The notes under the pieces: generated by a model
The model's database searches: none
Told to the model about the DNA's origin: nothing
Seen by the model: the letters and a program-made list of their open reading frames with translations, nothing else
Program-made: the position numbers and the translations under genes
Assembly (NCBI RefSeq): GCF_003334355.1
Contig: NZ_QOWP01000048.1
Direction: 5' to 3' (one strand)
Source of the DNA: Escherichia coli
GTDB taxonomy: Bacteria; Pseudomonadota; Gammaproteobacteria; Enterobacterales; Enterobacteriaceae
Length of the DNA stretch: 19,380 nucleotides
Shown here: piece after piece, positions 3,006 through 5,188 of the stretch
Numbering within the stretch: position 1 is the stretch's first letter
How the letters are laid out: every line of letters starts with the position of its first letter

Positions 3006-4157
3006 ATGTCACTTGTCACCGATCTACCCGCCATTTTCGATCAGTTCTCTGAAGCTCGCCAGAAAGGCTTTCTCACCGTCATGGATCTCAAGGAGCGCGG
3101 CATTCCGCTGGTTGGCACCTACTGCACCTTTATGCCGCAAGAGCTCCCGATGGCAGCCGGTGCGGTTGTGGTTTCGCTATGTTCCACCTCTGATGAAACC
3201 ATTGAAGAAGCCGAGAAAGATCTGCCGCGCAACCTCTGCCCGCTGATTAAAAGCAGCTACGGCTTCGGCAAAACCGATAAATGCCCCTACTTCTACTTTT
3301 CTGATCTGGTGGTCGGTGAAACCACCTGCGACGGCAAAAAGAAAATGTATGAATACATGGCGGAGTTTAAGCCCGTTCATGTGATGCAACTGCCAAACAG
3401 CGTTAAGGACGATGCCTCGCGTGCATTATGGAAAGCCGAGATACTGCGCTTGCAAAAAACGGTAGAAGAACGTTTTGGGCACGAGATTAGCGAAGATGCT
3501 CTGCGCGATGCCATTGCGCTGAAAAACCGCGAACGTCGCGCACTGGCAAACTTTTATCATTTGGGGCAGTTAAATCCTCCAGCGCTTAGCGGCAGCGACA
3601 TTCTGAAAGTAGTCTACGGCGCAACCTTCCGGTTCGATAAAGAGGCGTTGATCAATGAACTGGATGCAATGACCGCCCGCGTTCGTCAGCAGTGGGAAGA
3701 AGGCCAGCGACTGGACCCGCACCCACGTATTTTAATCACCGGCTGCCCAATTGGCGGCGCAGCAGAGAAAGTGGTGCGCGCGATTGAAGAGAATGGCGGC
3801 TGGGTTGTCGGTTATGAAAACTGCACCGGGGCGAAAGCCACCGAGCAATGCGTGGCGGAAACGGGTGATGTGTACGACGCGCTGGCGGATAAATATCTGG
3901 CGATTGGCTGCTCCTGTGTTTCGCCGAACGATCAGCGCCTGCAAATGCTCAGCCAGATGGTTGAAGAATATCAGGTCGATGGCGTAGTTGATGTGATTTT
4001 GCAGGCGTGCCATACCTACGCGGTGGAATCGCTGGCGATTAAACGTCATGTGCGCCAGCAGCACAACATTCCTTATATCGCTATTGAAACAGACTACTCC
4101 ACCTCGGATGTCGGGCAGCTCAGCACCCGTGTCGCGGCCTTTATTGAGATGCTGTAA
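3006..4157 (+). CDS. yjiM: Cys-rich 2-hydroxyacyl-CoA dehydratase (HgdB-like) / double-cubane-cluster-type protein YjiM (383 aa)
   Basis: ORF 2985-4157; ATG at 3006 preceded by GGAAGGA. About 11 cysteines in conserved-looking contexts (CTFMPQ, LCSTSDE, TTCDGKK, ITGCPIGG, IGCSCVSP, LQACHTY). Recognised as YjiM. Confidence 0.85.
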   Translation: MSLVTDLPAIFDQFSEARQKGFLTVMDLKERGIPLVGTYCTFMPQELPMAAGAVVVSLCSTSDETIEEAEKDLPRNLCPLIKSSYGFGKTDKCPYFYFSDLVVGETTCDGKKKMYEYMAEFKPVHVMQLPNSVKDDASRALWKAEILRLQKTVEERFGHEISEDALRDAIALKNRERRALANFYHLGQLNPPALSGSDILKVVYGATFRFDKEALINELDAMTARVRQQWEEGQRLDPHPRILITGCPIGGAAEKVVRAIEENGGWVVGYENCTGAKATEQCVAETGDVYDALADKYLAIGCSCVSPNDQRLQMLSQMVEEYQVDGVVDVILQACHTYAVESLAIKRHVRQQHNIPYIAIETDYSTSDVGQLSTRVAAFIEML

Positions 4158-4166
4158 GGAGTGGCA

Positions 4167-4934
4167 GTGACATATTCGATTGGCATTGATTCCGGCTCAA
4201 CCGCCACCAAAGGGATCTTACTGGCTGACGGCGTGATTACGCGCCGTTTCCTCGTTCCAACACCCTTTCGCCCGGCAACAGCAATTACTGAAGCCTGGGA
4301 AACTCTGCGCGAAGGGTTAGAGACAACGCCGTTTCTGACGCTCACCGGCTACGGACGGCAACTGGTGGATTTTGCCGATAAACAAGTGACGGAAATCTCC
4401 TGTCACGGGCTGGGCGCACGGTTTCTTGAGCCAGCAACGCGCGCGGTAATCGACATCGGTGGTCAGGACAGCAAAGTGATTCAGCTTGATGATGACGGTA
4501 ACCTGTGCGATTTCCTGATGAATGACAAATGCGCGGCGGGCACCGGGCGTTTCCTGGAGGTGATCTCGCGCACGCTTGGCACCAGCGTCGAGCAACTCGA
4601 CAGCATTACCGAAAATGTCATACCGCACGCCATCACGAGTATGTGCACAGTGTTTGCTGAATCAGAAGTGATCAGCCTGCGCTCTGCGGGCGTAGCGCCA
4701 GAAGCGATTCTCGCCGGAGTGATTAACGCGATGGCGCGGCGGAGCGCCAATTTCATTGCTCGTCTCTCCTGTGAAGCGCCGATTCTGTTTACTGGTGGCG
4801 TTAGCCACTGTCAAAGGTTTACCCACATGCTGGAAAGCCATCTGGGAATGCCGGTACAAACTCACCCTGATGCGCAATTCGCTGGTGCAATTGGCGCGGC
4901 GGTGATCGGTCAGCGGCAGAGAAAACGCGCATGA
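4167..4934 (+). CDS. yjiL: HgdC/BadF/BadG/BcrA/BcrD-family ATPase (putative ATP-dependent reductase/activator) YjiL (255 aa)
   Basis: AAGGAG at 4156-4161 with GTG at 4167 (5-nt spacer); the GTG at 4161 overlaps the SD. N-terminal IGIDSGSTATKG is the phosphate-1 motif of acetate/sugar-kinase-fold ATPases. Starts 9 nt after the yjiM stop. Confidence 0.85.
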   Translation: MTYSIGIDSGSTATKGILLADGVITRRFLVPTPFRPATAITEAWETLREGLETTPFLTLTGYGRQLVDFADKQVTEISCHGLGARFLEPATRAVIDIGGQDSKVIQLDDDGNLCDFLMNDKCAAGTGRFLEVISRTLGTSVEQLDSITENVIPHAITSMCTVFAESEVISLRSAGVAPEAILAGVINAMARRSANFIARLSCEAPILFTGGVSHCQRFTHMLESHLGMPVQTHPDAQFAGAIGAAVIGQRQRKRA

Positions 4935-5188
4935 AAGAGTATCTGTTTTTATTTCACTCCACGGTCGGCGTCATACAAACCCGCAAGGCGTTGCAGGCAG
5001 CGGGCATGACTTTTCGCGTCAGCGATATTCCCCGTGATTTACGCGGCGGCTGCGGGTTATGCATTTGGCTGACCTGTCCGCCTGGCGAGGAAATTCAATG
5101 GGTGATCCCTGGGCATACGGAATCAGTTTATTGTCAGCAGGATGGTGGCTGGCGCTGCATTGCACATTACGGGATTTCTCCGCGTTAA
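4931..5188 (+). CDS. Small DUF3343-like (putative Se/S-carrier-like) protein, 85 aa, translationally coupled to yjiL
   Basis: ATG at 4931 overlaps the yjiL stop (ATGA). Codon usage is typical E. coli (ctg, ggc, cgc rich). [43 protein letters not shown] resembles the DUF3343 pattern as I recall it; also contains a CPPG motif. Confidence 0.6.

Follow-up and report, generated by a model that had tools for sequence, protein, structure and literature searches.

The DNA analysed here is a stretch of 19,380 nucleotides (nt) of the Escherichia coli contig NZ_QOWP01000048.1, called the window below, and the system in question is the gene group yjiM-yjiL-ytiA on its plus strand (3006-5188). The gene order was taken from the RefSeq annotation of an identical strain, and the coordinates were converted to those of the window. 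The first gene, yjiM (3006-4157, 383 amino acids), is predicted to encode a short-form ("class II") double-cubane cluster protein (DCCP). It starts with ATG at 3006 behind the ribosome-binding site GGGGAAGG (2993-2999), which lies in the 115-nt intergenic region after yjiN (2891-3005), and it ends with TAA at 4155-4157. The second gene, yjiL (4167-4934, 255 amino acids), begins with GTG at 4167 after a gap of 9 nt that contains AGGAG, ends with TGA at 4932-4934, and encodes a putative ATP-dependent electron-injecting activase (archerase or DCCP reductase (DCCP-R) type, ASKHA fold). The ATG of the third gene, ytiA (b4715; 4931-5188, 85 amino acids), overlaps the yjiL stop codon by 4 nt (ATGA), and its frame closes at 5188; the product is a DUF3343 (PF11823) protein labelled "putative Se/S carrier-like", where Se/S stands for selenium/sulfur. 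Co-translation of the three genes is implied by the 9-nt gap and the 4-nt overlap. An earlier note on this DNA, made from the letters alone, had described both junctions correctly; its coupled open reading frame (ORF) of 85 codons was confirmed as coupled, and what it had missed was the identity of this frame as the annotated DUF3343 gene ytiA.

The window belongs to the E. coli core chromosome, and several complete genomes (ECONIH4, 042, E24377A and others) match its bases 2900-5300 with 100% identity. Of 5426 complete E. coli genomes, 5372 contain the yjiM-yjiL-ytiA segment (at least 80% of 2900-5300), nearly always as a single chromosomal copy. Given this identity and prevalence, and the strong matches to curated families described below, yjiM, yjiL and ytiA are real core-genome genes and no chance ORFs.

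YjiM scored 531.3 bits against the NCBIfam equivalog NF040772 (cutoff 350), with residues 14-383 aligned to model positions 1-372, the full length of the model; this family is also the source of the RefSeq label of the protein, "double-cubane-cluster-containing anaerobic reductase". The Pfam family HGD-D was matched at E 4.7e-121, and the closest solved structure was the DCCP of Carboxydothermus hydrogenoformans (6ENO, 7YYL_C; E 4.5e-75, 40% identity). Read from the DNA, YjiM has exactly 11 cysteines (40, 59, 78, 93, 108, 247, 273, 282, 302, 304 and 335), in agreement with the earlier count of about 11. Seven of them (C40, C59, C78, C108, C273, C302 and C335) pair one-to-one with the motif cysteines of 6ENO at a spacing of X18-X18-X29-X164-X28-X32, which is near the published DCCP motif, and among 43 aligned, diverse representatives with 31-49% identity these seven were either invariant or conserved to at least 90%; C93, C247, C282 and C304 lie outside the motif. 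It has been reported that six of the seven cysteines of DCCP ligate the [8Fe-9S] cluster and that the seventh (Cys94 in DCCP) is located beside it (Jeoung and Dobbek 2020). By alignment, C40, C78, C108, C273, C302 and C335 of YjiM are the predicted [8Fe-9S] ligands, and C59 would be the equivalent of the non-ligand Cys94. The segment LPRNLCPLIKS of YjiM also aligns with DCCP, including the Asn that contacts DCCP-R. The equivalog score, the seven-Cys motif and the adjoining gene for an ATP-dependent reductase all place YjiM among the DCCPs, and the profile check thus bore out the suggestion that YjiM is double-cubane-like.

YjiM was 86-98% identical across Enterobacteriaceae in a word-indexed homologue search, which returned Enterobacteriaceae only, and more diverse relatives were therefore taken from a representative search and a genome scan. 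The closest non-enteric relatives are Firmicute proteins with 63-67% identity, found in a Bacillota metagenome-assembled genome, Proteocatella and Enterococcus pseudoavium (loci L010, L011 and L013). Compared with the 40% identity of the C. hydrogenoformans DCCP, these values are compatible with an old horizontal transfer between gut Firmicutes and Enterobacteriaceae. Another relative, a protein of 722 amino acids (P0242), is 52% identical to YjiM over residues 1-383 and carries a C-terminal extension of about 340 residues with no similarity to YjiL or YtiA. The end of this extension resembles the tail of a helix-turn-helix regulator, as judged by eye only; the protein could be a sensor-regulator fusion or an assembly artefact.

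Like YjiM, the beta subunits of 2-hydroxyacyl-CoA (coenzyme A) dehydratases have the HGD-D fold, and YjiL is the same kind of activase as HgdC. The HgdAB/HgdC and HadBC/HadI dehydratases are nevertheless different enzymes: they are heterodimers of an alpha and a beta subunit, each with a single three-Cys [4Fe-4S] cluster, and they require electrons in catalytic amounts only, while YjiM has the seven-Cys motif and no partner subunit. Against the dehydratase models YjiM reached 93 bits for HadC (cutoff 700) and 19 bits for HadB (cutoff 750), and the annotation of the whole window contains no other HGD-D-family gene, so the system was not assigned to the 2-hydroxyacyl-CoA dehydratases. The earlier note had correctly seen that the window holds no HgdA-like partner, but to call the module an orphan on that ground was misleading: DCCPs are homodimers with one double-cubane cluster per monomer according to the DCCP papers of 2020 and 2025, and therefore no such partner is needed.

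The K-12 record lists YjiM as "putative dehydratase subunit" and YjiL as activator of (R)-hydroxyglutaryl-CoA dehydratase, and these labels, like the HGD-D family of YjiM, would suit a non-functional remnant of a 2-hydroxyacyl-CoA dehydratase whose alpha subunit was lost. We regard such a remnant as extremely improbable and as effectively refuted by the HadB and HadC scores. Moreover, the seven-Cys motif is the DCCP signature, whereas dehydratases have a three-Cys motif. Over 99% of E. coli genomes keep the genes intact, their conservation between enteric genera is 86-98%, and FNR activates them directly.

Class I benzoyl-CoA reductases (BcrABCD or BzdNOPQ) offer a further comparison, in which BzdN holds an [8Fe-9S] double cubane fed by the ATP-dependent BzdPQ, and YjiM matches 8S02_B at E 9.5e-20. 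The double cubane of BzdN, however, is an electron relay and store for the catalytic BzdO. All four subunit models tried remained below their cutoffs (BzdN 81 bits vs 454, BcrC 59 vs 421, BzdQ 159 vs 380, BcrD 111 vs 313), and no BzdO/BcrB-like gene is present in the window, so membership in this class was not assigned either.

YjiL begins MTYSIGIDSGSTATK and has IGIDSGSTATK near its N terminus. Its ATP motifs are GIDSGST (phosphate-1, the motif already seen in the earlier note) and DIGGQD (phosphate-2). The protein scored 358 bits against TIGR00241 (cutoff 125.4), matched Pfam BcrAD_BadFG (PF01869) at E 7e-75, and was aligned end to end with HgdC (1HUX, residues 3-251, E 1.3e-52), HadI (4EHT, E 1.9e-51) and DCCP-R (7YYL_E, E 5.3e-47). 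Two cysteines, C122 in MNDKCAAGTGRF and C160 in CTVFAESEVIS, align with the conserved cysteines in identical motifs of HgdC and HadI, and the equivalent cluster cysteines of DCCP-R were reported as C115 and C152 in the structure paper of 2022. C122 and C160 are thus the predicted ligands of a [4Fe-4S] cluster that would bridge the dimer. With the score above the cutoff, both ATP motifs and both cluster cysteines, YjiL falls among the activases of the HgdC/HadI/DCCP-R type, and the proposal of an HgdC-type ATPase was upheld.

Based on these comparisons, YjiM and YjiL can with high confidence be assigned to the DCCP/DCCP-R enzyme class. This part of the work is a re-discovery, since the DCCP reading of the two proteins is already found in RefSeq and in several papers; Jeoung and Dobbek (2020) named YjiM/YjiL a probable class II DCCP system and placed YjiM in the seven-Cys "cluster IV". 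As in the C. hydrogenoformans system (CHY_0487/CHY_0488; 6ENO, 7YYL), a gene for an HGD-D-fold protein is followed by an ASKHA activase gene, the seven motif cysteines and the segment in contact with DCCP-R are kept in YjiM, and both cluster cysteines are kept in YjiL. The E. coli operon differs from it in the short form of YjiM, the third coupled gene for a DUF3343 protein, the facultatively anaerobic host and FNR control, and it is known here from homology. The mechanism carried over from the solved DCCP:DCCP-R complex would be as follows. A YjiL homodimer would hold the [4Fe-4S] cluster at the dimer interface through C122 and C160 of each subunit; a cellular low-potential donor would reduce this cluster, after which YjiL would bind MgATP and dock onto the YjiM homodimer. 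ATP hydrolysis and product release would then push an electron uphill into the [8Fe-9S] cluster of YjiM, where the substrate would be reduced. The earlier note had called the physiological substrate unknown, and the same is stated in the papers of 2020, 2022 and 2025.

One indication of the kind of substrate could come from the N terminus. The alignment of YjiM with DCCP begins at residue 26 of YjiM and residue 62 of DCCP; YjiM therefore lacks about 36 N-terminal residues, which matches the missing "channel-closing helices" described for a putative class II DCCP (Jeoung and Dobbek 2020). An open protein of this kind may reduce or dehydrate a larger organic substrate, for example a CoA thioester, at the double-cubane cluster ("class II DCCP"), with YtiA being accessory or unrelated. 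A CoA ester or larger substrate was indeed suggested by the structure authors, and the nearest characterised relatives (HadBC and BzdNO) act on CoA esters. The scores of YjiM far under the HadB, HadC and Bzd/Bcr cutoffs argue against this explanation, and so does part of the gene context, to which we return below.

What the reductase might act on is suggested by the third gene. YtiA matched Pfam PF11823 (Se_S_carrier, formerly DUF3343) at E 6.1e-14 over residues 3-59, and this match and a single highly conserved Cys place it in DUF3343. F8, C41 and G42 are the sole invariant positions in 29 sequences that span Proteobacteria and Firmicutes; C44 and C49 are kept mainly inside Enterobacteriaceae. 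Across Enterobacteriaceae YtiA is 51-96% identical with an invariant core of 13 residues, and it evolves much faster than YjiM. In the confident AlphaFold2 model (predicted local distance difference test score 90) YtiA adopts a small beta-alpha-beta fold of ferredoxin type, and C41 is located on the loop that joins strands 2 and 3. In a Foldseek search this model gave PII/GlnK-like ferredoxin folds at non-significant values (E of at least 0.017, best matches about 0.03), and therefore no function was transferred to YtiA. Searching PDB sequences with the YtiA profile yielded nothing beyond a spurious CxxC match to the polyferredoxin FwdG (E 0.087), which is due to a C-x2-C-x4-C motif in YtiA. 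This motif (GGCGLCIxLxC) covers residues 41-49 of enteric YtiA (5051-5077 in the window); most of the Firmicute DUF3343 proteins examined are without it, and mainly the first Cys, or CC, is kept in them. The enteric motif might be a binding site for a metal or a cluster. In some E. coli assemblies ytiA is truncated or frameshifted, giving alleles of 56-62 amino acids (P0166, P0193, P0195 and P0211; one cluster was found on 31 contigs), in which the N-terminal 50 residues with C41, C44 and C49 are retained and the C-terminal strands are lost.

DUF3343 was proposed as a Se/S chaperone with one highly conserved Cys on the basis of comparative genomics, and it was linked in STRING to a "CoA-substrate-specific enzyme activase" and an "HGD subunit" beside selD in Slackia (Lin et al. 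2015). YtiA resembles the known carriers SufE, CsdE, TusA and YedF in being small, in having one invariant Cys on an exposed loop, and in the typical position of the gene beside that of a cysteine desulfurase or selenocysteine lyase. It differs from them in having no sequence similarity to YedF or to any solved structure, and Se/S carriage by DUF3343 is so far proposed only. A DUF3343-like domain inside long YedF proteins was also considered and rejected, because all E values were above 0.05 and YtiA and YedF share no sequence similarity.

The gene context of YjiM homologues was then compared over a wide range of genomes. A genome-wide scan with the DCCP alignment gave at least 593 confirmed matches, and the counts below refer to the best 80 loci (L004-L083), namely six from Enterobacteriaceae and 74 others, with 50-67% identity over the full 383 residues; the 74 non-enteric loci come mostly from Firmicutes (Clostridia, Tissierellia, Enterococcus, Listeria and Halanaerobium). 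ORFs within 8 kb were called and clustered, and recurrent families were labelled with NCBIfam. A YjiL-like activase was found within this distance in 53 of the 80 loci and DUF3343 in 23 (26 genes, all with final hidden Markov model matches below E 1e-18). A TIGR01977/SclA-like cysteine desulfurase or selenocysteine lyase was present in 18 loci, YedF (TIGR03527, "selenium metabolism protein") in 12 and SelD in five, and MtaA-like methyltransferases, corrinoid proteins and RamA-like activases (the "type I mlp" cluster) in 6-8. The DUF3343 gene lies at most 150 nt from the DCCP or activase gene on the same strand in 15 of the 80 loci and, as read from gene maps, directly adjoins the SclA-like gene in about 11 of the 18 SclA-containing loci. 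For example, the order is SclA-DUF3343-activase-DCCP in L064, L065 and L068, DCCP-activase-SclA-DUF3343-YedF in L075, and YedF-SelD-DCCP-activase in L030. Full 8-kb flanks were available for 41 non-enteric loci; one or more of DUF3343, SclA, YedF and SelD occur in 20 of these and at least two in 13, and the same Se/S genes or the mlp cluster occur in 24.

One activase is shared by a long-form DCCP (about 420-430 amino acids) and a short-form, YjiM-like DCCP in several Clostridia and Tissierellia, and the order long DCCP-DUF3343-activase-short DCCP was observed in L082 (5681-9149), L051 (3592-7711) and L062 (8001-11763). These loci suggest that two catalytic partners are served by one ATPase.

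For the CoA-ester explanation, the frequent occurrence of Opp-type and amino-acid ABC transporters and of PatB C-S lyases among the neighbours can be counted in its favour. However, no CoA-transferase, CoA-ligase or acyl-CoA dehydrogenase family was found among the conserved neighbours in the 80 loci, and the recurrent neighbours are Se/S genes instead; taking all points together, we consider a CoA thioester or similar substrate unlikely. The "PatB" cluster matches upstream in the enteric loci are probably mis-clustered MocR/GntR-aminotransferase regulators and were disregarded.

The Se/S genes, ytiA included, could also be maturation factors that supply the double-cubane cofactor with its bridging mu2-sulfide, or with a selenide. 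The pairing of SclA with DUF3343 resembles the relay pairs SufS-SufE and CsdA-CsdE, and DUF3343 adjoins or overlaps the activase or DCCP gene in the 15 loci mentioned, often right after the SclA-like desulfurase or lyase. A 2x[4Fe-4S]-Se cofactor was listed by Haft as a formal possibility for the co-occurrence of DCCP and SelD. We nevertheless judge such a maturation role highly improbable: the C. hydrogenoformans DCCP made in E. coli carried [8Fe-9S] by crystallography, though that host has its own ytiA, BzdN also holds an [8Fe-9S] cluster with a bridging sulfur, and DUF3343 is nearby in only 23 of the 80 loci.

Literature data connect the family with selenium more widely. The authors of NF040772, who cite YjiM, found 955 of 970 high-scoring DCCPs in SelD-containing assemblies (Haft and Gwadz). 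DCCP and DCCP-R were drawn in selenium-type mlp clusters, and MarHDK-like genes beside non-selenium mlp clusters (Kountz et al.). Because MarHDK is swapped for DCCP/DCCP-R between sulfur- and selenium-type mlp clusters, a DCCP-catalysed reductive cleavage of a C-Se bond is suggested as one concrete possibility, by analogy. The methylthio-alkane reductase MarBHDK is likewise an ATP-driven low-potential metallocluster reductase tied to type I mlp clusters, but the analogy is functional only: its fold and cofactor scaffold are unrelated to those of DCCP, E. coli has no mlp cluster, and cleavage of C-Se or C-S bonds by DCCP is pure inference.

Expression data give a further connection. The intergenic region between yjiN and yjiM presumably carries the FNR-dependent promoter of yjiML-ytiA. 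Consensus scans of 2700-3010 and 5189-5252 gave no convincing FNR box, promoter or terminator above the expectation from shuffled sequences (6 promoters vs 9.3 expected and 17 FNR-like sites vs 10.6 expected), and the best FNR-like site, TTTATAGAAATCCA at 2884-2897 with 2 mismatches, was not above chance. The operon limits were therefore not set from the sequence, and we relied on Myers et al. (2013), who listed the FNR-activated transcription unit as yjiML and reported direct FNR activation. In published data for O157, yjiM rises together with frd, nrf and nrdDG on oxygen depletion, and under nickel and copper stress it was reported to fall along with the rest of the FNR regulon. A published independent component analysis of E. 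coli transcriptomes contains an uncharacterised iModulon composed of ydjXYZ-ynjABCD, yedEF, yjiLM and ynjE, which shows higher activity under anaerobiosis and reduced activity in fnr and arcA mutants, and which its authors relate to the usage of molybdenum and selenium. No regulatory motif shared by the regions upstream of yjiM, yedE and ydjX was found above the shuffled null (best word GAGAGAGATCAAAT). Reviews mention a proline-rich peptide phenotype of the "yjiL-mdtM cluster", which is credited to the MdtM transporter.

The co-regulation of yjiM with the hcp, nrf and nir genes in the FNR regulon would also fit a promiscuous small-molecule reductase for anaerobic detoxification of nitrogen oxides or other small unsaturated compounds, all the more as the C. 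hydrogenoformans DCCP, with ATP and DCCP-R, acts as a reductase of acetylene, hydrazine and azide, with CO and cyanide as inhibitors. Such a role appears quite improbable for YjiML, whose open, short-form architecture contrasts with the narrow channels of the C. hydrogenoformans protein and whose gene neighbourhoods give no nitrogen-oxide or detoxification signal.

Weighing these data, we favour, with a modest degree of confidence, the explanation that yjiM-yjiL-ytiA is an FNR-activated operon for a two-component, ATP-driven low-potential reductase of the DCCP family together with a cysteine-based carrier, and that it plays a role in Se/S mobilisation. What is added here to the known DCCP assignment is the Se/S gene context over 80 loci, and the Se/S role, already hinted at in the literature, is our best guess. 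Taken by itself, a physiological role in the mobilisation of selenium, possibly also of sulfane sulfur, under anaerobiosis is put forward from context and only tentatively. In this scheme Cys41 of YtiA would present or accept a S/Se species, such as a perselenide, Se(0) or an organoselenium compound, which would be reductively turned into selenide for SelD; by analogy with C-S cleavage by MarBHDK, the bond to be broken could be the C-Se bond of an organoselenium compound. A more specific and rather doubtful version is that a YjiM2-YjiL2-YtiA system would free selenide for SelD from the species on, or delivered by, YtiA Cys41 and so represent the ATP-driven step still missing from selenium assimilation, both in anaerobic E. 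coli and in many gut Firmicutes. In a more extreme variant, the bridging atom of the double-cubane cofactor itself would be selenium in vivo.

Several points weigh against a role in Se/S mobilisation. The reduction of a persulfide or perselenide does not, by our own reasoning, obviously need ATP-energised electrons. As far as we know, E. coli makes selenoproteins in contexts without yjiML, and to our knowledge a selenium phenotype has never been reported for yjiM, yjiL or ytiA; a literature search found no experimental work on YjiM, YjiL or YtiA. The cluster type, ATPase activity and complex formation of YjiM and YjiL are all predicted from sequence. About half of the 41 full-flank non-enteric loci have no Se/S gene nearby, no activase lies within 8 kb in 27 of the 80 loci, and the enrichment of Se/S genes (about 46 in 1.15 Mb of flanks) was judged qualitatively, with no whole-genome background. 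DUF3343 also occurs in organisms that lack SelD, with no selenium-specific subfamily (Lin et al. 2015), and it was for YjiM itself, with its missing channel-closing helices, that a CoA ester or other larger substrate was suggested (Jeoung and Dobbek 2020).

The extent of the functional unit was assessed in seven enteric species loci. In all of them yjiM, yjiL and ytiA stand together, and yjiL and ytiA still overlap by 0 to 10 nt. Upstream of yjiM, yjiN (DUF445; 1610-2890 in the window) is found in five of the seven (E. coli, E. albertii, Superficieibacter, Citrobacter and Kosakonia, the last with a DUF2164 gene between yjiN and yjiM); in Cedecea and Hafnia it does not occupy this position, and none of the 74 non-enteric loci contains it. 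Downstream, yjiK (5253-6113) occurs only in E. coli and, at a non-adjacent position, in Superficieibacter, and yjiJ (6181-7359) only in E. coli. The earlier note had counted yjiN, yjiK and yjiJ as possible members of the same unit. The neighbourhood comparison that it called for supports the three-gene core but not yjiK and yjiJ, which show no co-conservation with yjiML outside Escherichia and near relatives and are lineage-specific neighbours outside the unit; yjiN is linked only within Enterobacteriaceae and is at best an enteric-specific companion. The G+C content falls from about 0.55 in yjiML to 0.445 across yjiK, which suggests that yjiK was separately acquired. A mechanically called ORF for yjiK starts with ATG at 5142 (323 amino acids) and would overlap the last 47 nt of ytiA; in RefSeq and K-12 the start is GTG at 5253 (286 amino acids), leaving a gap of 64 nt after ytiA.

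Elsewhere in the window, mdtM (337-1569) precedes yjiN, and yjiJ is followed by kptA on the minus strand (7372-7926) and then by yjiH, yjiG, iadA, hypT, iraD, the uxu genes and gntP. An Rfam scan of the whole window found no RNA family. A stretch of low G+C content (11500-13500; 0.33-0.39 vs about 0.52 elsewhere) contains iraD, idlP, ytiD and a frameshifted DUF2686 (yjiC-like) pseudogene at about 12571-13321, a position taken from the identical reference strain. In the strains identical to the window, the hsd/mcr/mrr "immigration control" region of K-12 (yjiA-mdtM) is swapped for a BrnT/BrnA toxin-antitoxin pair and a degraded IS1 (10152-11623 of locus L001), just upstream of window position 1.

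The chemistry of double-cubane [8Fe-9S] enzymes is nitrogenase-like, and the function of the homodimeric DCCPs was described as unknown as of 2025. The presence of a well-conserved, FNR-activated DCCP copy in E. coli puts this question in the most tractable organism. Three lines, the coupled DUF3343 gene, the clustering with SclA, YedF and SelD in Firmicutes and the co-expression with yedEF, converge on a testable Se/S hypothesis. If true, the selenium-assimilation reading would provide the first physiological function for a homodimeric double-cubane enzyme.

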